The notes beneath the pieces were generated by a model that saw only the letters and a list, made by a program, of their open reading frames with translations, was not told where the DNA came from and made no database searches. This document shows, one piece after another, positions 3,400 through 14,268 of a stretch of 64,000 bases of DNA. How positions within the stretch are numbered: position 1 is the stretch's first letter; each line of letters begins with the position of its first letter. The translations under genes were made by a program, and so were the position numbers. This stretch comes from an uncultured Shimia sp. (lineage in GTDB: Bacteria > Pseudomonadota > Alphaproteobacteria > Rhodobacterales > Rhodobacteraceae), in the NCBI RefSeq assembly GCF_947493595.1, contig NZ_CANLRL010000004.1, positions 143,201-207,200 of the forward strand. The letters are read 5' to 3'.

Positions 3400-4413
3400 T
3401 TACTGACACGCCGCGTTGGAAGAGCCCGCGCAGAGCACGTCTTTCTCGATCCAGCCTGCGTCCAGAACTGTGTTCAGATTGTCGGCTGTCACCGGCACTG
3501 GTGCCAAGAACATGGAGTTCAACGTGGTGCCTGCTGGGGAGGTCCACTCAGCGGAGCCTTCCACGGCGTTGCCGGAGGCCAGGGCGACGGCGATTTCGCC
3601 GGCCGCAGCACCCAGAGCGCGCGCATCTTTCCAAACGGAAACAGTCTGCGTGCCCATGGCCACACGGTTCAGCGCAGCGTGGTCACCGTCTTGACCAGAC
3701 ACTGGAATGCCTTCCATGCCCTGTGCGGTCAGAGCAGCAACAACACCACCGGCGGTGCCGTCGTTAGACGCAATCACAGCGTCAACTTTGTTGTCAGCCG
3801 CGGTCAGGATCTGCTCCATGTTGCGCTGGGCGTTGGCCGGAACCCAGCCATCGGTGTAGGCTTCGCCGACAATTTTGATGTCGCCTGCGTCAATCGCGGC
3901 CTGGATGATTTCCTGCTGACCACCGCGCAGGAAGTCTGCGTTTGGATCGGTTGGGGAGCCTTTGATCATCACGTAATTGCCTTTTGGCATTGCTGCCAGA
4001 ACGGCGCGGGCTTGCATGCGGCCCACTTCGACGTTGTCAAAGGTCAGGTAAAACGCGCGGCTGTCCTCAATGAGGCGGTCATAGGCGATCACAGGGATTT
4101 CTTCGTCGGCGGCTGCCTGTACGGCTGGGCCAACAGCGGAGGCGTCCTGTGCCAGAATGATCAGCGCGTCGGCGCCTTGAGCGATCAGGCTTTCGATGTC
4201 GGAAAGCTGCTTGGCTGAGGAGCTCTGCGCGTCAGCGGAGATGTATTTGGCGCCAGCGGCGTCCAGCGCGCCTTTGATGGCGGCTTCGTCAGTTTTCCAG
4301 CGCTCTTCCTGGAAGTTGGACCAGCTTACGCCGATGACCAGATCGTCTGCCCAGACTGCGGTGCTTAGGAAAGCGCCGGCGATAACAGCCGTCGCGGATG
4401 CAAAAAGTTTCAT
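3400..4413 (-). CDS. xylF: D-xylose ABC transporter periplasmic binding protein
   Basis: Signal peptide; SWSNFQEERWKTDEA, IAYDRLI, FDNVEVG, SGQDGD, TVSVWKD motifs of the XylF family. Confidence 0.9.
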   Translation of the reverse strand: MKLFASATAVIAGAFLSTAVWADDLVIGVSWSNFQEERWKTDEAAIKGALDAAGAKYISADAQSSSAKQLSDIESLIAQGADALIILAQDASAVGPAVQAAADEEIPVIAYDRLIEDSRAFYLTFDNVEVGRMQARAVLAAMPKGNYVMIKGSPTDPNADFLRGGQQEIIQAAIDAGDIKIVGEAYTDGWVPANAQRNMEQILTAADNKVDAVIASNDGTAGGVVAALTAQGMEGIPVSGQDGDHAALNRVAMGTQTVSVWKDARALGAAAGEIAVALASGNAVEGSAEWTSPAGTTLNSMFLAPVPVTADNLNTVLDAGWIEKDVLCAGSSNAACQ

Positions 4414-4491
4414 GGTGTCCTCCCAAATGTTCGTCCCGGTCTTTGGCCGAAGTGAGTCGGCTCAGGCCGGGTGTGACCAATGGTAGCGTAA

Positions 4492-4512
4492 TAAATTTGT
4501 AAATCAAATTAA
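4492..4512. promoter_or_regulatory. Predicted XylR (ROK) operator between divergent xylF and xylR
   Basis: TAAATTTG-TAAAT-CAAATTAA, an inverted repeat with a 5-nt spacer; matches the site upstream of xylB at 15/16 half-site positions. Confidence 0.7.
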
Positions 4513-4621
4513 ATCAACTAACCTTGCATTGATCCAACAAACATCGGCATGGTTTTGACGCCGGGTAAGGGCAGCTTGTGTTTTGGTTGCGGACCGTGTC
4601 TGGTGAAGAAGGAGCTAGTAT

Positions 4622-5815
4622 ATGTCTGTGAATCAACGAGAAATTGGGCGGCGTAAGCTGCTGGCAGAAATTCGCAGGCAGCAGCGTGTCCCGCGCATTG
4701 ACCTGAGCGAGCTGACCGGAATCAGCCGCGCAACCGTGACAACCATCACCGCCGAGTTGCTCCGCGAAGGGTTGATTGAAGAAGTCACAAGCGACCTTGG
4801 CGAGAAAGATTCGAAGCGGGGACGTCCCAAGGTGGATCTGAAGATTCGCGGTGCGGCGCGGCTGATCGCAGGGGCAAAAATCTCCAACAAGACGGTGTCT
4901 TTGGTGCTGCTCGATTTTGAAGGTACACAATTGGCCGCCCATGAAGCGGATCTGGAGACGGCGGTCTTGCCTGCCGAAGACATGGCGGAAGTACTGTCCG
5001 GACTTGTCGAGACGTTGGCGCGCAAGATTGGCCTGTCGCGGGCAGATGTGGCGGGGTTTGGTTTGGGTATCGCTGGTGTGGTCGATGCGCCGCGCGGTTT
5101 TGTGCATTGGTCGCCGTCTTTGACCAGCCGCAACGTGCAGTTTGGTGACGTGCTGGAGCGGGTGCTGGGCATTCCGGTGTTTTTGGACAACGATGCCAAC
5201 CTTGTGGCGATGGCCGAGAAGAGCTTTGGTCTTGGACAGGGGCACAGCGATTTTATTGTGGTGACCATTGAGAGTGGTGTCGGTATGGGCATCGTAATCA
5301 ATAATGAGATTTACCGGGGGACGCGGGGCTGTGGCGCAGAATTTGGTCACACCAAAGTGCATCTAGAGGGGGCGCTTTGTCGTTGTGGGCAGCGAGGGTG
5401 CCTGGAGGCCTATGTGGCGGACTACGCGCTGACGCGTGAAGCCATGTTGGCCAGTGGCGAAGCCGCCGAGCGGCAAGTTGAGGATATTTTGCGCACGGCC
5501 AAAGAGGGCGAAGCCGTGGCTGCGTCTATTGTGAACCGGGCCGGGCGGATGTTTTCCATGGGGCTGGCCAACATCGTGAACATTTTTGACCCTGAGTTGA
5601 TCATTTTGGCGGGCGAACAAATGCAGGCCAGCCACCTTTATGCGGAAGAGGTGATTGACGGTATGCGCAAGCTGATTGTGCAGGTCGACAAAGCCCCGCC
5701 GGAGGTGGTGGTACACAAGTGGGGCAACCTGATGTGGGCCCGAGGAGCAGCGGCCTATGCACTTGAAAATGTGTCGGAAAATGCGCTCGTGGAGTTGGCG
5801 GATAATGTGGCTTAA
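4622..5815 (+). CDS. xylR: ROK-family transcriptional repressor of the xylose locus
   Basis: N-terminal HTH (LSELTGISRATVTTITAELL...RGRP), ROK core LDNDANL, GVGMGI, AEFGH, Zn motif CRCGQRGCLE. Confidence 0.88.
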   Translation: MSVNQREIGRRKLLAEIRRQQRVPRIDLSELTGISRATVTTITAELLREGLIEEVTSDLGEKDSKRGRPKVDLKIRGAARLIAGAKISNKTVSLVLLDFEGTQLAAHEADLETAVLPAEDMAEVLSGLVETLARKIGLSRADVAGFGLGIAGVVDAPRGFVHWSPSLTSRNVQFGDVLERVLGIPVFLDNDANLVAMAEKSFGLGQGHSDFIVVTIESGVGMGIVINNEIYRGTRGCGAEFGHTKVHLEGALCRCGQRGCLEAYVADYALTREAMLASGEAAERQVEDILRTAKEGEAVAASIVNRAGRMFSMGLANIVNIFDPELIILAGEQMQASHLYAEEVIDGMRKLIVQVDKAPPEVVVHKWGNLMWARGAAAYALENVSENALVELADNVA

Positions 5816-7346
5816 GGGCGCAAGTGCATTGGCACTATTGATGGCAAGTAATGCGCAGGCAGAAGTGCGATTTGCATCAGTGGACGTTGCGGAGCATGTT
5901 TATGACGGCGGCTGGGAATTTTACGTCGGCGGTGGTGTGGCAGCGTTTGATTGCAGCGGTGATGGCTTGCCGGAGCTGGTGGTGGCGGGCGGGGAAAACC
6001 CGCCGATGCTGCTGCGCAACCAGAGTTCCCATGGCGGGGCGGTGACCTTTGAGGAGGACACGCCCGATGCCTTGATGATGCCCGATACTACGGGGTTTTA
6101 CCCGCTTGATATTGATGGCGACGACCGGCTCGATCTTGTTGCGTTGCGTGTGGGGGAGAACCGCCTTCTGAAAGGTGGCGAAGAGTGTCGTTTTGAGCCT
6201 ATGGATGTGCCGGGGTTTGACGGGGGCAATGCTTGGACCACGGCGTTTTCTGCCACTTGGGAGCGGCAGGATGCGCTGCCGACATTGGCGTTTGGCAATT
6301 ACGTGGATCGTGACGATCCCAAAGGGCCGTTTGAGGCTTGTGACGAGAATGATTTGTTCCGGGCCTCTGGCGAGGGGTATGCGCATGCCACGTTGACGCC
6401 GGGGTTTTGCCCGTTGTCGATCTTGTTTTCCGACTGGGGCCGCTTGGGCCGTTCGGATTTACGGATGAGCAATGACCGCCATTACTATGTGAAAGGTGGC
6501 GCGGAGCAGCTTTGGGCGATGGAGGCGACGCCGCGGCTTTATGGGGAGGCGGATGGCTGGGCCACGCATATGTTGTGGGGCATGGGCATTGCGCAGCGTG
6601 ATCTGGACTTTGACGGCAAGGCGGAGGTGTTTTTGTCGTCGATGGGCGATCAGCGGTTGATGAAACGTGTGAGCGCGGAGGCCCCGACGTTTGAAGATGT
6701 GCCTTTTGAGATGGGCACCTCGGCGCATCGGCCATACACCGGTGGCGACGGGCGGCCCTCAACCGGCTGGCACATCAGTTTTGGCGATGTGGACAACGAC
6801 GGGCTGGATGATGTGTTCATATCCAAAGGCAATGTGCAGCAAATGCCGGGCGCGGCGATGGAAGACCCCAACAATCTGTTGATTCAGCAGGCCGACGGAA
6901 CATTTGCTGAGCTGGGCGACGTAGCTGGGATCGCCACATTGGCGCGCAGCCGTGGGGCAGCGTTGGTGGATATGAACCACGATGGGTTGCTGGACCTGGC
7001 AGTGGTAAACCGACGGGCACCGTTGGAGGTTTATCAAAACGTCACTGAAAGCACGGGAAATTGGGTGGCTTTGACCTTGATGGGGAAAGAGGCCAACAGT
7101 CAGGCCGTGGGGGCCTTTATTGAGGTGAAAGTGGGCGACCAAGTGCACCTACGGGAAATCACCGTGGGTGGCGGTCACGCCGGAGGTGTATCCGGGCCGC
7201 AGCATTTTGGGCTGGGCGATGCGGAGACCGTTGAAGTGCGCGTGCGCTGGCCGGATGGCACGCAGGGCGATTGGATCGAGGTGCCGGTAAATGGCAGCTG
7301 GCGGGTGTGGTCCGAAGGGCCGGTGACGGTGCTGTCGGCGTACTGA
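5805..7346 (+). CDS. Exported CRTAC1-like protein (FG-GAP/VCBS beta-propeller plus ASPIC/UnbV domain)
   Basis: Signal peptide MWLKGASALALLMASNAQA. Repeats DCSGDGLPEL, DIDGDDRLDL, DLDFDGKAEV, DVDNDGLDDV, DMNHDGLLDL. C-terminal AVGAFIEV...GGGHAGG...HFGLG...VRWPDG. ATG overlaps the xylR stop by 11 nt. Confidence 0.85.
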   Translation: MWLKGASALALLMASNAQAEVRFASVDVAEHVYDGGWEFYVGGGVAAFDCSGDGLPELVVAGGENPPMLLRNQSSHGGAVTFEEDTPDALMMPDTTGFYPLDIDGDDRLDLVALRVGENRLLKGGEECRFEPMDVPGFDGGNAWTTAFSATWERQDALPTLAFGNYVDRDDPKGPFEACDENDLFRASGEGYAHATLTPGFCPLSILFSDWGRLGRSDLRMSNDRHYYVKGGAEQLWAMEATPRLYGEADGWATHMLWGMGIAQRDLDFDGKAEVFLSSMGDQRLMKRVSAEAPTFEDVPFEMGTSAHRPYTGGDGRPSTGWHISFGDVDNDGLDDVFISKGNVQQMPGAAMEDPNNLLIQQADGTFAELGDVAGIATLARSRGAALVDMNHDGLLDLAVVNRRAPLEVYQNVTESTGNWVALTLMGKEANSQAVGAFIEVKVGDQVHLREITVGGGHAGGVSGPQHFGLGDAETVEVRVRWPDGTQGDWIEVPVNGSWRVWSEGPVTVLSAY

Positions 7347-7356
7347 AAAAGCCGCG

Positions 7357-7380
7357 TGGATCAGTTGGACAGCTGATCCA
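7357..7380. terminator. Hairpin at the convergence of the propeller and di-heme enzyme genes
   Basis: TGGATCAG-8 nt-CTGATCCA, overlapping the di-heme gene stop; a 5-T run follows 6 nt later on the minus strand. Confidence 0.4.
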
Positions 7381-8683
7381 TGGGCAGTCCGGAGGGTACC
7401 GACTCTGGCACTCCAAGGCGGCCTTGAATGGCGTCGTAGTCCGTGAGGCTTTCGAGGAAGGCGAGGATCTGCGCGACCTCCTTATCGGTGAGGTCAGTCG
7501 GCGAAAGTTCGTTGGCGGCTGCGATTTCGATCACTTCAGGTTCGTCCGTCATCAATTTGAAATCTGTATCAAATTTTCCATCGGAATAGGTGGTGTGGGC
7601 CGCTACATAGGCTTTGAGCGAGGCCACCGGATCGAGGTGATGCCTGACCATGGCTTCCAGGGAGGTGTAGGCCCCGTTATGGCCATAAGGCGCGGTCTGC
7701 GTGATGTTGCGCAGGGAGGGCGTGCGAAAGCGGTAGAAGTCTTCGTCTTGGCCGGTGACGCGGCCACGGCCGACGTCGCGGTTGTGGTTTTCAAACGGTG
7801 CCGCTTTGCCCGGGCCGATCTGTGGCAGCGCGATGGCGTGGAAGCCGTGGTTGGTCTGGAATTGGCCGGAATGGCAGGTGCCGCATTGGGCTTTGCCGTA
7901 GAAAAGGTCCAGGCCAGCGGCGGCATCAGCGGTGAGTGGCGTGCCGTCGCGCAGGTACGCGTCAAAGGCGGAGGCATCCGCGCGCCATTCAAAGGCAATG
8001 AAGGCGGCCAATGCGTTGGCGATGTGGTGGAACTTGATGGGTTCCTCTGCGCCAATCACATCGTCAAAGGCAGCGCGGTAGGCGGGGATGGCTTCGACCC
8101 GTTTGGCAAGGATGTCCCATGCGCCGCCTTCGCCGGTGAGTTGGCCGAGACGCACGGCTTGCGAGACGTCGTTTTCGGAATAGTGACCGGCCATTTCGTC
8201 GCCAGAGAGCACCGGGAACATGGCTTGTGCGGCAAGGGCGTTGTCAAAGCCCATCTCCATCTCGCTTCCTAAAGGGGTGCGGATGCCGGAGGGGCGGGAG
8301 GGGTCGTCTTCGAGGCGGCCATCGTGGAAAAAGACTGTGAATTCGGTGGCGCCGAGGTTCCACAGCGCGGGGGCGTTGCGGGGGATGCGGTTTTCGGGCG
8401 GGTTTGAGGTGTCGATTTTGCGCTCTAGCCCGAGGCCGGTGGCGCCGTCGCCAAGGCCGAGGGAGACGCCATCCGACGTGCCCAGATCGGGGTGGTGGCA
8501 AGTGGCGCAGGCGACGCTGCGGTTGCCGGACAGGATCGGATCGTAGAACAGTTGCCAGCCCAGCTCGACCTCCGTCACGTCCTGCGCCGGGAAGATGGCG
8601 TCCGCCTTGGGCAGCGGTGAGGCGCTGGCACCGGTTGCCAGAATGGCGGGCAGGAAAGCGGCTGTGAGCATCAAGGGGCGCAT
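7361..8683 (-). CDS. Exported di-heme c-type protein, bacterial cytochrome c peroxidase/MauG superfamily, atypical residues
   Basis: Signal peptide MRPLMLTAAFLPAILATGASA. Two CxxCH motifs (CATCH, CGTCH), LGWQLFYDPILS, RNAPAL, FRTPSLRN, TAPYGHNG, LAFLESLTD. Confidence 0.88.
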   Translation of the reverse strand: MRPLMLTAAFLPAILATGASASPLPKADAIFPAQDVTEVELGWQLFYDPILSGNRSVACATCHHPDLGTSDGVSLGLGDGATGLGLERKIDTSNPPENRIPRNAPALWNLGATEFTVFFHDGRLEDDPSRPSGIRTPLGSEMEMGFDNALAAQAMFPVLSGDEMAGHYSENDVSQAVRLGQLTGEGGAWDILAKRVEAIPAYRAAFDDVIGAEEPIKFHHIANALAAFIAFEWRADASAFDAYLRDGTPLTADAAAGLDLFYGKAQCGTCHSGQFQTNHGFHAIALPQIGPGKAAPFENHNRDVGRGRVTGQDEDFYRFRTPSLRNITQTAPYGHNGAYTSLEAMVRHHLDPVASLKAYVAAHTTYSDGKFDTDFKLMTDEPEVIEIAAANELSPTDLTDKEVAQILAFLESLTDYDAIQGRLGVPESVPSGLPMDQLSN

Positions 8684-8776
8684 GGCGGGTCTTTCATTTA
8701 GAAAAGCCCTCCGCGCAGGAGAATATGCGCGAAGGGCCAGTGTATCTTGGCTCAATAACGATTTTGAAACAAGATA

Positions 8777-10081
8777 TTACACAAAGCGGTTCACGTAGTT
8801 TTCCAAAATCTCCTGACGGCCGGATTTGGGTGCCGGGTTGATCTTTCCGCTCATCACGTCGTCGAATGTGCCGTCCAAATCGCCGGCTAGCATGGCTTTG
8901 GCCGCGTCTGTGTCCCAACCGGCGTAGCGCTCGGCCAGGGCATCTTCGAGACCACCGTCCTCGATCATTGCGGCGGCGGCTTTCAGGCCGCGGGCGCAGA
9001 CGTCCATGGCGCCGATGTGGCCTGCGATCAGGTCTTCGGCGTCCAAGGACTGGCGGCGCAGTTTGGCGTCAAAGTTGGTGCCGCCGGTTTTCAGGCCGCC
9101 GTCTTTGAGGATGTGGTAGTAGGCCAGCGCAACTTCGGGCACCGAGTTCGGGAACTGGTCGGTGTCCCAGCCGGATTGGTAGTCGTTGCGGTTCATGTCG
9201 ATCGAGCCGAGCACACCAAGGGCGGCAGCGGTGGCGATCTCATGTTCAAAGCTGTGACCGGCGAGGATGGCGTGGCCCTGCTCGAGGTTGAGTTTGACCT
9301 CGTTTTCCAAGCCGTACTTCTTGAGGAAGCCATAGCAGGTGGCGGCGTCAAAGTCGTATTGATGCTTGGAGGGTTCTTGCGGTTTTGGCTCCACCAAGAT
9401 GGTGCCTTCGAAGCCAATCTTGTGTTTGTAGTCCACCACCATGTTTAGGAAGCGGCCCATGTTGTCGAGTTCACGGCCCATGTCGGTGTTGAGCAGGGTT
9501 TCATAACCCTCGCGGCCGCCCCAGAGCACGTAGTTTTCGCCGCCCAAACGTTTGGTGGCGTCCATGCAGGTTTTCACGGTGGCGGCGGAATAGGCGAAGA
9601 CTTCCGGGTCCGGGTTGGTGGACGCACCACTCATCCAGCGGCGGTGGCTGAACATATTGGCGGTACCCCAGAGCAATTTCACGGCGCGTGTGCTCATTTT
9701 TTCTTCAAAGTAATCAATGATCTCTTCGAAGTTCTTCAGGCTTTCGGCAAAGCTGTCACCCTCAGGGCGCACATCGGCGTCGTGCCAGCAGAAGTAAGGT
9801 TGTTGCAGGATGTCAAACATTTCAAAGGCAGCGTCGGCTTTGACTTTGGCCATGTCCATGCGGGTTTGCGGGTGCCACGGGCGCTCAAAGGTTTGGCCGC
9901 CAAAGGGGTCGCCGCCTTCCCAGGCAAAGCTGTGCCAATAGGCCACGGCAAAGCGCAGGTGGTCTTCCATGCGTTTGCCCATGACAACCTCATCAGGGTT
10001 GTAGTGGTGGAAGGCCATCGGGTTGGTGCTTTCCGGCCCTTCATATTGGGCGGGGGCGATGTTTTTGAAGAAATCGGTCAT
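8777..10081 (-). CDS. xylA: Xylose isomerase (class II)
   Basis: [47 protein letters not shown]. Confidence 0.97.
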
Positions 10082-11532
10082 TGTGTCAGGGCCTTTATGC
10101 CGGGGTACAGGGTGACGAAGTGGGCGTAGGCCTCTTCGTAGGCGTCGCGCAGATCACTGCGGGGGGAAACGGTTGTGGCGATCTCTGGCCGGGTCATGAC
10201 GGTCTCAGGATCGGCTTTGGTGGCGGCGCAAATGGCCAGCCGGGCGGCGCCAAGGGCCGCGCCAAATTCGCCTGCTTTGGGCAGGGAAATGGGCAGGTTC
10301 AGCAGCGTGGCGATGAGCTCGACCCAATAGGGTGACTGGCTGCCGCCGCCGATGGCAATCAGGCTTTGCAGGTCCGCGCCGGTGGATTTCAACGCTTCGA
10401 GATTATCGCGTAGAGCGAAACTCACACCTTCTAGCACGGCTTGGGTGAGGGCGGCGGGGCCGGTGTCGATGTCGATGTTCAGGAAGGCGCCGCGCATGGT
10501 GGCGTCGTTGTGTGGGGTGCGCTCGCCGGACAGATAGGGCAGGAAGCGCATGGCGCCGGGGCCGTTGATGCTGTCGCCCAAGAGCTTGGTCAGGTTGGCT
10601 GGGCTTTCTTGCAGGTTGCGGGAGAGCCAGTTGAGGCTGTCGGTGGCGGCAAGGATCACGCCCATCTGATACCAGCGATTGGGAACGGCGTGGCAGAAGG
10701 TATGCACGGCGCTTTCCGGTTTGGGGGCGTAGGCGTCGCGGCCAGTGAGCAGCACGCCGGAGGTGCCTAGCGAGACAAAGCCGTCTCCCTCGTTGAGCGC
10801 GCCGATCCCACACGCGGCGGCGGCGTTGTCTCCGGCACCTGCGGCGACAATCACGCCTTTGGGCAGGCCTAGTTCGGCGGCGATGTCATCGCGCACGGTG
10901 CCAATGGCGTCGGAGCCTTCAAACAGGTCCGGCATCTGATCACGGCGCACGCCGGAGGCGGTGAGCAAGGTGTCAGACCAGTCGCGGGTGCCAACGTCAA
11001 GCCAACTGGTGCCAGCGGAGTCGGACATGTCAGAGGCATAGACACCGGTGAGCCAGAAGTTCAGGAAGTCTTTGGGCAGCAGGACTTTGGCGGTTTTGGC
11101 AAATATGTCCGGCTCGTTTTCGGCGACCCAGGCCACTTTGGGGGCGGTGAAGCCAGGGAAGACGATGTTGCCGGACAGGTCTCGCACCTGTTCGGTGGTG
11201 TCGAACTTGGCGGCTTGCGCGGCGGAGCGGGTGTCGTTCCACATCATGCAGGGGCGCAAGGGGGCGCCGTTTTTGTCCAGCAAATTGGCGCCGTGCATGT
11301 GACCGGACACGCCGATGCCTTTGATAGCGGCGACCTCAGTAGGGTGGTCGGCCTTTAGCGCGGCAAAGACCGCTTTGGTGGCCGTGATCCAGTCCGATTG
11401 CAGCTGTTCGCTCCACCCTGAATGCGGTCGCGCCGTGTCCACGGCGGCCTCTTTTGCGCCGATCACACATTGGGACGCGTCAATCAGCAGGGCGCGTACT
11501 CCAGACGTGCCCAGATCCAATCCCACAAACAT
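10078..11532 (-). CDS. xylB: Xylulokinase
   Basis: [48 protein letters not shown]; overlaps the xylA start (ATGA). Confidence 0.96.
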
Positions 11533-11558
11533 GGGGGTTCCTCCTCAAGTCTACATAC

Positions 11559-11579
11559 TTAATTTGTGCCTCAAATTAA
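11559..11579. promoter_or_regulatory. Predicted XylR operator upstream of xylB
   Basis: Perfect TTAATTTG-TGCCT-CAAATTAA inverted repeat 27 nt upstream of the xylB start. Confidence 0.72.
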
Positions 11580-11726
11580 TTTGAGGATCAAACTAGAAAT
11601 TGCCTACTCGAAGATTTTTCCACTGGAGCGTGGATGGTGGAGATAAGTGTTTTTTTCGAAAAATCGAATGTAAACAAAGAGTTCGTCGTCTATTGGGCGC
11701 GACAGAAGAAAATTGCGAGTGAGCGC

Positions 11727-11757
11727 TTGACCCTCCTGTGACTGGAACCTTTATGTG
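11727..11757 (+). promoter_or_regulatory. CueR-dependent copA promoter
   Basis: TTGACC (-35), 19-nt spacer, TATGTG (-10-like). Overlapping dyad ACCCTCC-N7-GGAACCT resembles the CueR box ACCTTCC-N7-GGAAGGT. Confidence 0.8.
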
Positions 11758-11793
11758 ATGTAGTCGAACGATGTTTGAGAACGAGGCGAGTCG

Positions 11794-14268
11794 ATGACGG
11801 CGCATGTGTTGAATTTCCAGCTGGACGGGCTGAGCTGTGCGGGCTGCGTGAACCGCGCGCAGAAGGCGATGGCCGCTGTGGAAGGGGTGCAGGACGCAAG
11901 TGTGAACTTGGCGGACACCTCGGCGCGGGTGGCGTTTGAGGATGACACCGTGCGCGACGGTGTGATTGCGGCGCTGAAGTCGGCGGGCTATCCGGCGCGG
12001 GAGGCTACGGTGACGCTGGATGTGGGGGGCATGACCTGTGCAGGCTGTGTCCGCCGCGCGGAGGCCGCGATGGCGGCGGGCGAGGGCGTGCTGACGGCGG
12101 AGATCAACTTTGCCAGCGAGAGCGCAACCGTGCGTTATCTGGAAGGCGCGATCACGGCCAACCAGATTGCCGCGTTGAGCACGCGGGCGGGCTATCCGGC
12201 GCGGGTGCCGGAGGAGGGCGTGCCAGAAGACATCGCAGATCGGAAAGAGGAAGAGGCCAAGGCGGCCAAGCGGCGGGTGCTGCTGGCGGTGGTGCTGGCG
12301 TTTCCGGTGTTTTGCATCGAAATGGGCGGACATATGGTGCCCGCGTTTCATCATTGGCTGATGGCCAATGTGGGGATGCAAAACAGCTATCTGTTTCAGT
12401 TTGTGCTGACCTCGATCCTGTTGGTCGGGCCAGGGCGGGAGTTTTACGCCAAGGGTATTCCTGCGCTACTGAAAGGCGCGCCGGAGATGAACTCGCTGGT
12501 CGCCTTGGGCACGGGGGCGGCTTATCTGTTCTCCGTCGTGTCGACCTTTGCGCCGGGGCTGCTGCCTGCGGGCACCGCCAATGTGTATTTTGAAGCGGCG
12601 GCGGTGATTGTAGTGCTGATCCTGGCGGGGCGCTGGATGGAAGCGCGGGCCAAGGGGCGCACCGGGGCGGCGATTGCCGAGCTTGTCGGCTTGCAGCCGC
12701 GCGTGGCGCAGGTGGAGCGTAAAGGCAAAGTATCCGAGGTGGCGATCGAAGAGGTGGCGGTGGGCGATGTGCTGCATCTGCGGCCCGGGGAGCGTGTGGC
12801 TGTGGATGGGCGTGTGCTGGATGGCAACTCCTTTGTGGATGAGGCGATGATTTCCGGTGAGCCGGTGCCAGTGGAGAAATCCGCAGGCGATGCGGTGATA
12901 GCGGGCACGGTGAATGGCGCCGGTGTCCTGCGCTATGAGGCGGAGCAGGTGGGGCGCGACACGATGCTGGCGCAGATCATCGACATGGTGCGTCAGGCGC
13001 AAGGGGCAAAGTTGCCGATCCAGAACCTGGTGGACCGGATCACGGCGGTGTTTGTGCCGGTGGTGATGGCGATTGCGGCGGCGACCTTTGTGGTCTGGAT
13101 GTTTGTGGGGCCGGAGCCGCGCCTGGGCTATTCGCTGGTGGCGGCGGTGGCGGTACTCATTATCGCTTGCCCCTGCGCCATGGGATTGGCCACGCCAACC
13201 TCGATTATGGTCGGGACGGGACGGGCGGCGCAGTTGGGCGTTTTGTTTCGCAAAGGTGACGCGCTGCAGGGTTTGCGGGACTGCGATGTGGTGGCGTTTG
13301 ACAAGACGGGCACGCTGACCCAAGGGGCGCCATCAGTGACCGATGTGGCATTGGCGGAAGGTTTTGACGAGGATGATGTGTTGGCGCGGGTGGCGTCGGT
13401 TGAGGGGCAATCCGAGCATCCGTTGGCGCGGGCGATGGTTGCTGAAGCTCAAGAACGTGGGCTGGACGTGGCAGCGTGTACGGAGCTTGAGGTGCGGGTT
13501 GGGCACGGGCTGATTGGCACTGTGGATGGCGCACAGGTGGCCGTAGGCGCGGCGCGGTTGATGTTGGCACTGGAGGTGCCTTTGGGTGGGTTTGAAGCGC
13601 TGGCGGTTGCGTTTGCCGAGGCAGGCAAGACGCCGATCTATGTGTCGGTGGACGGCACATTGGCCGCTGTGATTGCGGTGGCGGATGCGGTGAAACCAAA
13701 CTCGGCAGCAGCAATCAAAGCCCTTCATGGCATGGGCAAGACCGTGGCGATGATCTCCGGTGACACAGAACGCACGGCGCAGGCTTTGGCGCGGGAATTG
13801 GGCGTGGATCACGTGGTCGCAGAGGTCTTACCAGACGGTAAGGTTGCGGCGCTGGAGCAGTTGCGCGACACCGTTGGCAAGGTGGCCTTTGTCGGCGATG
13901 GCATAAACGACGCGCCCGCCCTGGCGGCGGCGGATGTGGGTATCGCCATTGGCACAGGCACGGATGTGGCGATTGAAGCGGCGGATGTGGTGTTGATGGC
14001 GGGCGACGTGGGGGGCGTTGTGACCGGGTTTGACCTGAGCCGCCGGGTGATGCGTAATATCAAAGAGAACCTGTTCTGGGCGTTTGGCTACAACGTGGCG
14101 CTGATCCCTGTGGCGGCGGGCATTTTGGTGCCCTTTGGCGGGCCCGCGCTGTCACCGATGTTGGGCGCCGGGGCGATGGCGCTCTCCAGCGTGTTTGTCC
14201 TGTCCAACGCGCTGCGGTTGCGGCGCATCCAGCCAGCCTTTCAGGCCAGCAAGAAAGAAGGTGTGTGA
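11794..14268 (+). CDS. copA: Copper-translocating P1B-type ATPase
   Basis: Two HMA domains (GLSCAGC, GMTCAGC), CPC, DKTGT, SEHP, GDGIND, YN and MxxSS Cu(I) transmembrane motifs. Confidence 0.95.
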   Translation: MTAHVLNFQLDGLSCAGCVNRAQKAMAAVEGVQDASVNLADTSARVAFEDDTVRDGVIAALKSAGYPAREATVTLDVGGMTCAGCVRRAEAAMAAGEGVLTAEINFASESATVRYLEGAITANQIAALSTRAGYPARVPEEGVPEDIADRKEEEAKAAKRRVLLAVVLAFPVFCIEMGGHMVPAFHHWLMANVGMQNSYLFQFVLTSILLVGPGREFYAKGIPALLKGAPEMNSLVALGTGAAYLFSVVSTFAPGLLPAGTANVYFEAAAVIVVLILAGRWMEARAKGRTGAAIAELVGLQPRVAQVERKGKVSEVAIEEVAVGDVLHLRPGERVAVDGRVLDGNSFVDEAMISGEPVPVEKSAGDAVIAGTVNGAGVLRYEAEQVGRDTMLAQIIDMVRQAQGAKLPIQNLVDRITAVFVPVVMAIAAATFVVWMFVGPEPRLGYSLVAAVAVLIIACPCAMGLATPTSIMVGTGRAAQLGVLFRKGDALQGLRDCDVVAFDKTGTLTQGAPSVTDVALAEGFDEDDVLARVASVEGQSEHPLARAMVAEAQERGLDVAACTELEVRVGHGLIGTVDGAQVAVGAARLMLALEVPLGGFEALAVAFAEAGKTPIYVSVDGTLAAVIAVADAVKPNSAAAIKALHGMGKTVAMISGDTERTAQALARELGVDHVVAEVLPDGKVAALEQLRDTVGKVAFVGDGINDAPALAAADVGIAIGTGTDVAIEAADVVLMAGDVGGVVTGFDLSRRVMRNIKENLFWAFGYNVALIPVAAGILVPFGGPALSPMLGAGAMALSSVFVLSNALRLRRIQPAFQASKKEGV

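Follow-up and report, generated by a model that had tools for sequence, protein, structure and literature searches.

Histidine in the second-heme ligand column and the inter-heme tryptophan column of a MauG-family di-heme protein encoded beside a CRTAC1-family propeller in a Shimia xylose locus

The window analyzed here, a stretch of 64,000 nucleotides (nt) from an uncultured Shimia sp. (RefSeq assembly GCF_947493595.1, contig NZ_CANLRL010000004.1, positions 143,201 to 207,200), carries a gene for a di-heme protein of the CCP_MauG superfamily with His at two positions that are central to the chemistry of its relatives, one in the column of the distal axial ligand of the second heme and the other in the column of the Trp that bridges the two hemes. 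The gene lies within a xylose locus, tail-to-tail with a gene encoding a secreted propeller of the CRTAC1 family. Taken together, the data lead us to favor, with a modest degree of confidence, a di-heme enzyme that activates peroxide, has a bis-His second heme, and uses the propeller as its substrate or partner. In the field of bacterial cytochrome c peroxidases (bCcPs) and MauG, two residues, the bridging Trp and the Met or Tyr that ligates the second heme, are considered to determine whether such a protein is a scavenger or a long-range protein oxidant working through a bis-Fe(IV) state. Biochemical information on a His ligand set has so far been limited to engineered variants and to hydrazine synthase (HZS), a distant relative, and our analyses place the query within a very large natural clade with His at the ligand site, about half of which also has His at the Trp site. 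The ligand set itself has natural precedents; what is new here is the conserved and sometimes fused CRTAC1 partner of a His-ligated branch of the MauG family, within a xylose locus.

Residues are numbered throughout on the TTG-started translation of 7361-8755 (-). The query was aligned using MAFFT with MauG of P. denitrificans (read from plasmid NC_008688; QFWDGR and PYMHNGVFTDLRTAILFY at the two sites), an MbnH-family protein whose gene adjoins an MbnP gene (TLTWANP; PYMHDGSVATLEDAVEIY), E. coli YhjA (QFWDGR; PYFHRGDVPTLDGAVKLM), a MauG-like paralogue from the same genome, and 150 cluster representatives. The reference sequences were taken from annotated records; HMMER alignments to solved bCcPs end 1-5 residues short of the ligand. 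The segment 8309-8341 (-) translates to FTVFFHDGRLE, and its His144 shares a column with the inter-heme Trp of MauG (Trp93, in FWDGR), MbnH, and YhjA. The segment 7628-7690 (-) translates to PYGHNGAYTSLEAMVRHHLDP and includes the pair His372-His373, of which His373 shares a column with the Tyr of MauG (AILFY) and the Tyr of MbnH (VEIY). The distance from the PYxHxG motif to the ligand is +17 and gap-free in all of these proteins, and it ends on Met in YhjA, on Tyr in MauG and MbnH, and on His373 in the query. An earlier, sequence-only reading of this DNA had noticed by eye a His in FFHDGR in place of FWDGR and had put the last His of the C-terminal pair gap-free at the heme ligand; translation and the computed alignment bear out both, with His at each site and neither Met or Tyr nor Trp in the respective columns. 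The query thus departs from canonical bCcPs in having His373 in the column of the YhjA Met and FFHDGR instead of FWDGR, and it departs from MauG in that the columns of Tyr294 and Trp93 both hold His. A His at the inter-heme Trp position is, on the other hand, what has been described for the gamma subunit of HZS, the HZS residue being taken from PMC12758564.

Conservation was assessed in an orthologue set comprising 80 loci from different species (56-94% identity) and the query, that is, 81 sequences, in which 85 of 440 alignment columns are invariant. His373 is present in 81/81 orthologues, His144 in 80/81 (the remaining one has Asn), and His372 in 75/81 (the other 6 have Gln, Phe, or Ser), a pattern indicating that all three are kept by selection and not by chance. 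His373 is probably the axial ligand of heme 2, as judged from its register and conservation, and this assignment is also supported by the composition of the ligand column in the wider family, which consists almost wholly of residues known to ligate heme. Ligation of heme 2 by Met369, His372, or solvent instead is very improbable: Met369 lies one helical turn before His373 in the query and His372 is highly conserved, but position 369 is Met in just 9/81 orthologues and Val in 58/81, His372 gives way to Gln, Phe, or Ser in six of them, and it is the invariant His373 that stands in the exact register of the proven Tyr and Met ligands. The proposal in the sequence-only reading that this Met might be an alternative or switching ligand is rejected on the same conservation data. 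Two further histidines are features of the clade. His372 is found in 112/134 wider representatives and is retained even where the ligand is Tyr, MauG having Phe at this position, and His88 (8492-8494), directly after the first CxxCH motif, is present in 79/81 orthologues and is clade-specific, MauG having Asp; either residue might contact a propionate or contribute to an additional metal site.

The remainder of the protein has the features of a peroxide-reactive member of the superfamily. The open reading frame comprises 464 codons (7361-8755, minus strand) from a TTG start at 8755 to a stop codon at 7361-7363, but the real start is almost certainly the ATG at 8683 (Met25 of the TTG-started frame) because the orthologues begin (MR..) at corresponding residues. 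This start is followed by a hydrophobic, predicted Sec signal peptide, which implies export, and the product is therefore taken to be periplasmic. The protein is 95% identical to proteins annotated as 'cytochrome-c peroxidase' in Shimia species, which are marine Rhodobacterales, and it matches Pfam PF03150 (CCP_MauG) with 118.6 bits against a cut-off of 25.6 (E 4.6e-34). Each of its two domains has one c-type heme motif of the CxxCH form, CATCH at 83-87 and CGTCH at 291-295, both conserved in 81/81 orthologues, as are Cys83, Cys86, and His87 individually. By alignment, His87 is the predicted proximal ligand of a five-coordinate, peroxidatic heme 1, and His295 is assigned as the proximal ligand of heme 2. 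The sequence-only reading held that the peroxidatic Glu (GDEM) and the calcium-site motifs RNAP and TAPY are retained, and this is what the alignment gives. Gln177, Pro181, and Glu187 of the heme 1 distal pocket, which align with MauG Gln103, Pro107, and Glu113, respectively, and the adjacent Met188 are each present in 81/81 orthologues, and the pocket Glu is found in 145/150 wider representatives. Thr354 (80/81), Pro356 (81/81), and His359 (81/81) are similarly conserved. Asn127, a candidate calcium-site residue by homology to MauG Asn66, occupies a column with Asn in 74/81 and His in 7/81 orthologues. At the sequence level, therefore, both the Gln/Pro/Glu pocket and the inter-domain calcium-site residues of the superfamily are present; at the position of the canonical bCcP distal His, the alignment gives no equivalent residue in the query.

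Structure prediction is in agreement with these assignments. An AlphaFold2 (AF2) model built with 51 orthologues has a mean predicted local distance difference test (pLDDT) score of 79 and a predicted template modeling (pTM) score of 0.84, and in Foldseek searches it matches MbnH, BthA, MauG (including the Y294H entry 3ORV), and bCcP about equally (TM 0.5-0.69, probability 1.00), in keeping with the two-domain di-heme peroxidase fold. The helix SLEAMVRHH is confidently modeled (block pLDDT 91-92), and it places His372 and His373 at its C-terminal end. In profile searches, the closest solved relative is MbnH (E 3.2e-36).

The His ligand is not a peculiarity of this orthologous group. A word-indexed search returned 7898 proteins at E<=1e-10, and an exhaustive search of 50%-identity cluster representatives returned 657 at E<=1e-30; the best 150 of these representatives formed the wider set, of which 134 are full-length and carry both columns. 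The Trp column holds Trp in 67/150 and His in 56/150, and the ligand column of the 134 full-length proteins holds His in 100, Tyr in 26, Lys, Glu, and Met in 2 each, and Gly and Arg in 1 each. When the two columns are read jointly (Trp column/ligand column), the main states among the 134 are His/His (41), Trp/His (40), and Trp/Tyr (22). In a maximum-likelihood tree, the ingroup is parted from YhjA, MbnH, and MauG with an approximate likelihood ratio test (aLRT) value of 97; the query falls within a 58-row clade (aLRT 97) made up of 40 His/His, 14 x/His, and 4 Trp/His rows, and most of the 57 rows in its sister clade are Trp/His. On this tree, His at the ligand site is ancestral to the big group and the change from Trp to His marks one large subclade, in which the Trp column can also hold Gly, Ser, Thr, Val, Ala, or Phe. 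The His-ligand clade includes the TIGR03981 family and members in roughly half the genera sampled from the family to which this genome belongs. The literature search returned nothing on the His-ligated clade or on the pairing of CRTAC1 with a di-heme protein except an anammox-evolution paper. The His-ligated branch is thus, by these sequence comparisons, very large and unstudied, and the query is a typical member of it and not a special one. This bears on two statements of the sequence-only reading. Its description of the protein as neither a classic peroxidase nor a MauG stands as far as the ligand set goes, which is distinct from both the His/Met set of bCcPs and the His/Tyr set of MauG; its inference of a natural third chemistry is only partly supported, as the His/His set is natural but not unique, given the very large clade and the precedents of HZS gamma and RoxA.

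The same genome encodes two further CCP_MauG proteins. A paralogue on contig C7, 18452-19090 (+) (L005 958-2715; L090 7910-9667), is also of the His/His type (TLMHDGR … RMIRHH); it belongs to the 58-row clade, where it groups with the 20-row subclade of the query, its gene lies downstream of genes for transporter solute-binding proteins, and no CRTAC1 gene was found near it. The third gene, on contig C2 at ~447998-448501 (-) (L004 952-2184), encodes a classic MauG-like protein with Trp and Tyr (GGQFWDGR; PYMHNGVFEDLRTVVLFY) and is adjoined by an imelysin-like gene. None of the three CCP_MauG genes of the genome encodes a canonical Trp/Met bCcP.

The partner of the query gene is defined by several matches. 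Its product contains FG-GAP repeats and a C-terminal UnbV_ASPIC domain (Pfam FG-GAP_3, 2.4e-20; UnbV_ASPIC, 6.1e-15), its AF2 model has a pLDDT of 87 and a pTM of 0.90, and by far the best match of this model in the PDB is murine CRTAC1 (9etn_A, E 2.8e-22, TM 0.71/0.66), so that the protein has the features of the CRTAC1 family. The two genes are convergent, with 14 nt between their stop codons, and this arrangement is widely kept: in 67/80 species-level loci, the gene after the di-heme gene encodes a CRTAC1 protein and is convergent with it, and the same pair is annotated on a Phaeobacter piscinae plasmid. In a sample of 201 genomes of the same family, one per genus, the di-heme orthologue was found in 99 and the propeller in 119, both occurring in 90 genomes, the di-heme gene alone in 9 (which are the weakest matches), the propeller alone in 29, and neither in 73; this corresponds to an odds ratio of 25 and a Fisher p of 1e-20 in a test not corrected for phylogeny. 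In 62 of the 90 genomes with both genes the two lie at most 300 nt apart, and in 14 more they lie within 5 kb. Some of the tblastn matches to the pair (including the CRTAC1 region of L080 and L082) hold a single in-frame stop near one end of the match, most likely reflecting alignments that overrun the true start or stop and not pseudogenes.

Further evidence comes from domain fusions, as four representatives of the sister clade fuse the di-heme domain to FG-GAP/UnbV_ASPIC, and they do so in both orders (P0168 and P0189; P0173 and P0204). These fused proteins are of the Trp/His type and not of the His/His type. The idea that the His/His state is itself tied to the propeller was considered and rejected, since the fusions are Trp/His and several His/His relatives stand alone; having the propeller as a partner and having His at position 144 are therefore distinct traits. 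The occurrence of the two genes is also asymmetric, in that the di-heme gene is almost never found without the propeller and the propeller does occur without the di-heme gene, as would be anticipated for a di-heme enzyme working in the service of the propeller, in the way that MauG does for MADH and MbnH for MbnP (PMC11951088). Considering position, co-occurrence, and fusion together, a functional link between the di-heme enzyme and the propeller is probable. A second gene of the CRTAC1 family (FG-GAP_3 and UnbV_ASPIC) is present on contig C2 at 328344-328526 (L089 79-1728, 1912-3114); it is followed by a DUF2793 gene and is not adjoined by a di-heme gene.

The pair is embedded in a locus for xylose utilization (Table 1). 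In the order along the window, genes for a glucokinase and for xylG-, xylH-, and xylF-like components of an ABC transporter (minus strand) are followed by an operator candidate, xylR (+), the propeller gene (+), the di-heme gene (-), xylA (-), xylB (-), a second operator candidate, and a heavy-metal P-type ATPase gene. The 3' end of xylR overlaps the start of the propeller gene, and the di-heme gene is immediately preceded by xylB and xylA, which share its strand. Related loci share this setting, with a ROK gene beyond the propeller in 61/80 and with xylB and xylA upstream of the di-heme gene in 65/80 and 52/80, respectively. The inverted repeat AATTTG-N5-CAAATT matches exactly twice in the window, and 0/100 shuffles gave two or more matches; it is likely to be the operator of the ROK/XylR regulator, bracketing the whole locus including the di-heme/propeller pair. 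The di-heme and propeller genes appear to be the last members of two operons, xylB-xylA-diheme and xylR-propeller, that converge and are controlled by XylR, and both are therefore probably expressed with xylose catabolism. A promoter scan of positions 4300-11800 gave no sigma-70-like site, and so none before the di-heme gene, and terminator-like matches were at chance level. An imperfect inverted repeat (ATATCTTG … CAAGATAC) lies just past the xylA stop, within 8740-8776 (-). The P-type ATPase, which is of the copper type with two HMA domains (11794-14268, plus strand), is divergent from xylB and begins 260 nt beyond it; it is worth recording since MbnH, the closest solved relative of the query, serves a copper-binding partner.

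Table 1. Positions in the 64,000-nt window of the di-heme gene, its key residues, and the other genes and sites of the xylose locus
Feature	Position	Strand	Basis
His144 in FFHDGR, column of the inter-heme Trp	8324..8326	-	Alignment
His372-His373; His373 (7637-7639) in the column of the heme 2 distal axial ligand	7637..7642	-	Alignment, conservation
Heme 1 distal pocket, Q177-AMF-P181-VLSGD-E187-M188	8192..8227	-	Alignment to MauG Gln103, Pro107, Glu113
Asn127 (RNAP), candidate calcium-site residue	8375..8377	-	Homology to MauG Asn66
T354-A-P356-Y-G-H359, 'MauG motif' (calcium-site Thr/Pro, conserved His)	7679..7696	-	Alignment
Di-heme CCP_MauG-superfamily gene	7361..8683	-	Open reading frame translation, PF03150, orthologue starts
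Predicted Sec signal peptide, MRPLMLTAAFLPAILATGASA	8621..8683	-	Read by eye; orthologue N-termini all hydrophobic
First heme motif, C83-A-T-C-H87	8495..8509	-	Aligns with first CxxCH of MauG, MbnH, and YhjA
Second heme motif, C291-G-T-C-H295	7871..7885	-	81/81 orthologues; aligns with second CxxCH of the references
Secreted CRTAC1-family propeller (FG-GAP repeats and UnbV_ASPIC)	5805..7346	+	Pfam, AF2, Foldseek
ROK-family regulator, XylR-like	4622..5815	+	Pfam ROK (2.6e-57) and helix-turn-helix domain
xylA	8777..10081	-	Xylose-isomerase-like TIM barrel domain
xylB	10078..11532	-	FGGY kinase domain
Operator candidate, AATTTG-N5-CAAATT, between xylF and xylR	4494..4510		Exact match
Operator candidate, second copy, upstream of xylB	11561..11577		Exact match

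Relatives of the query are also found fused to modules other than the propeller, namely PA14 with CBM_4_9, LysM, a pectate-lyase-like beta-helix, Big_1 with CarboxypepD_reg, and Amidase_2 with cohesin and dockerin. Fusion proteins of this kind in the sister clade are P0264, P0254, P0199, P0195, and P0149 (PA14/CBM_4_9; beta-helix/NosD; Amidase_2/cohesin/dockerin; LysM; Big_1). One stand-alone relative (P0180; L096) is encoded between a GH78 alpha-L-rhamnosidase and a sulfatase. These fusions and this gene context, taken with the xylose regulon, amount to no more than a hint of a glycan-related role.

On the reading that we favor, heme 1 would probably be five-coordinate and react with H2O2, or with O2 after reduction, and heme 2 would probably be six-coordinate and bis-His (His295/His373), that is, a low-spin electron-transfer heme of comparatively low potential, unlike the high-potential His/Met heme of bCcPs or a His/Tyr heme able to reach Fe(IV). 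As the query lacks the bridging Trp, there would be no hop through a Trp radical, and the hemes might communicate by tunneling or through a network of propionates, calcium, and water. By analogy with Y294H-MauG and Y463H-BthA, peroxide would be expected to generate a compound-I-like oxidant at heme 1 and no bis-Fe(IV) species, ordinary peroxidase turnover being the other expected outcome; with neither Trp nor Tyr at these sites, a bis-Fe(IV) charge-resonance state is unlikely. The oxidant could be used on the CRTAC1 propeller, or electrons could be exchanged with it, either through an oxidative modification of the propeller, comparable with the action of MauG on MADH and of MbnH on MbnP, or within a single complex, comparable with that formed by the beta and gamma subunits of hydrazine synthase. 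A more specific version is less probable and can be offered only tentatively: a so far undescribed two-component periplasmic oxidative system of marine Rhodobacterales, fused into one protein in other bacteria, in which the propeller would acquire a protein-derived cofactor through the peroxide chemistry of a Trp-less, bis-His relative of MauG, or would form a complex with this relative, the mature system acting on sugars or glycans. The sugar or glycan part of this proposal is suggested by the xylose-regulon context and by the fusions to CBM, PA14, LysM, and beta-helix modules.

Several observations weigh against this interpretation. The AF2 model is heme-free, so that ligation of iron by His373 rests on homology and conservation, and the neighboring His372 is likewise conserved (75/81). 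The di-heme and propeller genes are convergent and not co-transcribed; the propeller is kept without this di-heme gene in 29/201 genomes; and the statistics of co-occurrence ignore phylogeny. Three other His/His representatives and the C7 paralogue stand alone with no propeller nearby, so that the partnership is a property of this orthologous group and of some of its sister clade and not of the His/His type in general. With respect to expression, the stretch that separates xylA from the start of the di-heme gene contains a weak hairpin at 8707-8723 (-) and, after it, a short T-run, and a search for expression data gave DNA runs and no RNA runs. This hairpin and the inverted repeat past xylA could represent an attenuator or an internal regulatory site, their score in the scan being at chance level.

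The alternative that survives best is that the protein is a plain periplasmic scavenger of H2O2, with a bis-His heme as the electron-entry site fed by a donor of lower potential than those of bCcPs and with a propeller that is unrelated to it. We consider this unlikely, but it has real arguments in its favor, as the full peroxidatic pocket and calcium-site residues are conserved, several His/His members of the clade stand alone in housekeeping contexts, and the absence of a canonical Trp/Met bCcP from the three CCP_MauG genes of the genome leaves the role vacant. In addition, the bis-His Y463H variant of BthA keeps a wild-type-like reduction of H2O2 with an external donor (PMC6405878), which is why a plain peroxidase role retains some probability for the query. 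The tight positional and phyletic link to CRTAC1 and the domain fusions are, however, difficult to reconcile with an unrelated propeller; the gene lies in a sugar regulon and not in an oxidative-stress context, and proven scavengers have not been seen to lose both the Trp and the high-potential ligand. It is less probable still that the di-heme protein chiefly serves as the electron-transferring cytochrome of a propeller that is redox-active and oxidizes a periplasmic sugar or glycan, in the manner of quinoprotein dehydrogenases and their cytochrome c. Such a role would suit a bis-His heme, which is typical of electron-transfer hemes, and would agree with the xylose-regulon locus, with the fusion of relatives to carbohydrate-binding and cell-surface modules, and with the relative encoded between a rhamnosidase and a sulfatase; on the other hand, propellers of the CRTAC1 type have no known cofactor-binding signature, none was found in this propeller, and the strictly conserved Gln/Pro/Glu pocket of heme 1 would be needless in a pure electron carrier. 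The least probable alternative is a reductive small-molecule chemistry similar to that of HZS gamma (e.g. reduction of NO or hydroxylamine) with the propeller as a structural subunit as in HZS beta-gamma, for although HZS gamma alone among the studied relatives combines a bis-His second heme with a His in place of the Trp, and although non-anammox HZS homologues flank CRTAC1/FG-GAP genes (PMC12758564, PMC12607021), these homologues keep Trp and not His (PMC12758564), relatedness to the query is marginal (5c2v_C, E 1e-5, in the region of the first heme motif only), the locus has no homologue of the alpha subunit, and its setting is that of sugar catabolism by a marine, aerobic heterotroph.

From a broader point of view, the peroxide-activating enzyme with a bis-His second heme that we propose would make this clade a natural test of how such a heme and a non-aromatic bridge affect peroxide chemistry. 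The conserved, sometimes fused CRTAC1 propeller provides a concrete candidate for the substrate or partner and makes the function testable, and its study could also illuminate what the CRTAC1/ASPIC fold, which is present in animals as well, does biochemically.

Comparison with characterized systems shows how the query combines features found separately elsewhere. Canonical bCcPs have the fold, the heme motifs, the peroxidatic Glu, and the calcium site in common with it, but they have a high-potential His/Met heme and an inter-heme Trp where the query has His at both sites, and the query has ~100 extra loop residues and is without the distal-His loop. In BthA (PDB 6NX0), Ser257 replaces the Trp, yet bis-Fe(IV) forms, so that the inter-heme Trp is dispensable there, and the Y463H variant loses the near-IR bis-Fe(IV) band, a loss also reported for Y294H-MauG, while H2O2 reduction is kept (PMC6405878); BthA differs from the query by its His/Tyr ligation and by having no propeller partner. 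RoxA offers a natural bis-His C-terminal heme (H394/H641) beside an O2-binding N-terminal heme (PMC6311187), but it is a protein of ~70 kDa whose distal His lies far from the MauG motif in a non-homologous register, and it has no propeller partner. The closest curated family is TIGR03981, the 'His-Xaa-Ser system-associated MauG-like protein', which the query matches over its full length with 272.6 bits, below the 340-bit cut-off; a genuine member (377 bits) has FFWDGK and …EEAIVAH, that is, it keeps Trp and has His at the ligand column, and no radical-SAM His-Xaa-Ser genes were found within the 11.5 kb around the di-heme gene to which the search was confined.

Hydrazine synthase gamma (PDB 5C2V chain C) is the only studied natural member reported with His at the Trp site, where its residue is also numbered His144, together with a bis-His second heme, heme gamma-II, and it works in complex with a beta-propeller subunit (PMC12758564, PMC12607021). 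The similarity to 5c2v_C is confined to ~50 residues around the first heme motif (profile positions 29-80), and HZS gamma was not among the 50 Foldseek matches listed of 82. The third Cys-heme link, the alpha subunit, and the reductive nitrogen chemistry of HZS gamma in anammox bacteria are not indicated for the query, and no gene resembling that of the alpha subunit was found in the locus. MauG (P. denitrificans; TIGR03791; PDB 3L4M) has the same fold (TM ~0.53/0.64) and shares the two CxxCH motifs, the Gln/Pro/Glu pocket, the calcium-site motifs, and PYxHxG with the query. It acts on a partner protein encoded by a separate gene, and its engineered Y294H variant (PDB 3ORV) corresponds to the bis-His heme 2 predicted for the query. 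MauG is, however, only ~25% identical to the query, which scores 115.9 against a TIGR03791 cut-off of 443.85, and it has Tyr294 and Trp93 where the query has His; its setting is the mau context with pre-MADH as partner, whereas the query is surrounded by xylA, xylB, xylR, xylFHG, and the CRTAC1 propeller. MbnH (PDB 6E1C; TIGR04039), the best solved relative of the query by both profile and Foldseek searches, also has Trp and Tyr at the two sites, and the query scores 121.3 against a TIGR04039 cut-off of 362.85; MbnH belongs to an MbnP/copper context, whereas the query is adjoined by a CRTAC1 propeller and by no MbnP. MbnH nevertheless converts a Trp of its neighbor MbnP into kynurenine (PMC11951088), and it thereby sets the precedent for a di-heme enzyme whose target is the periplasmic product of an adjacent gene.

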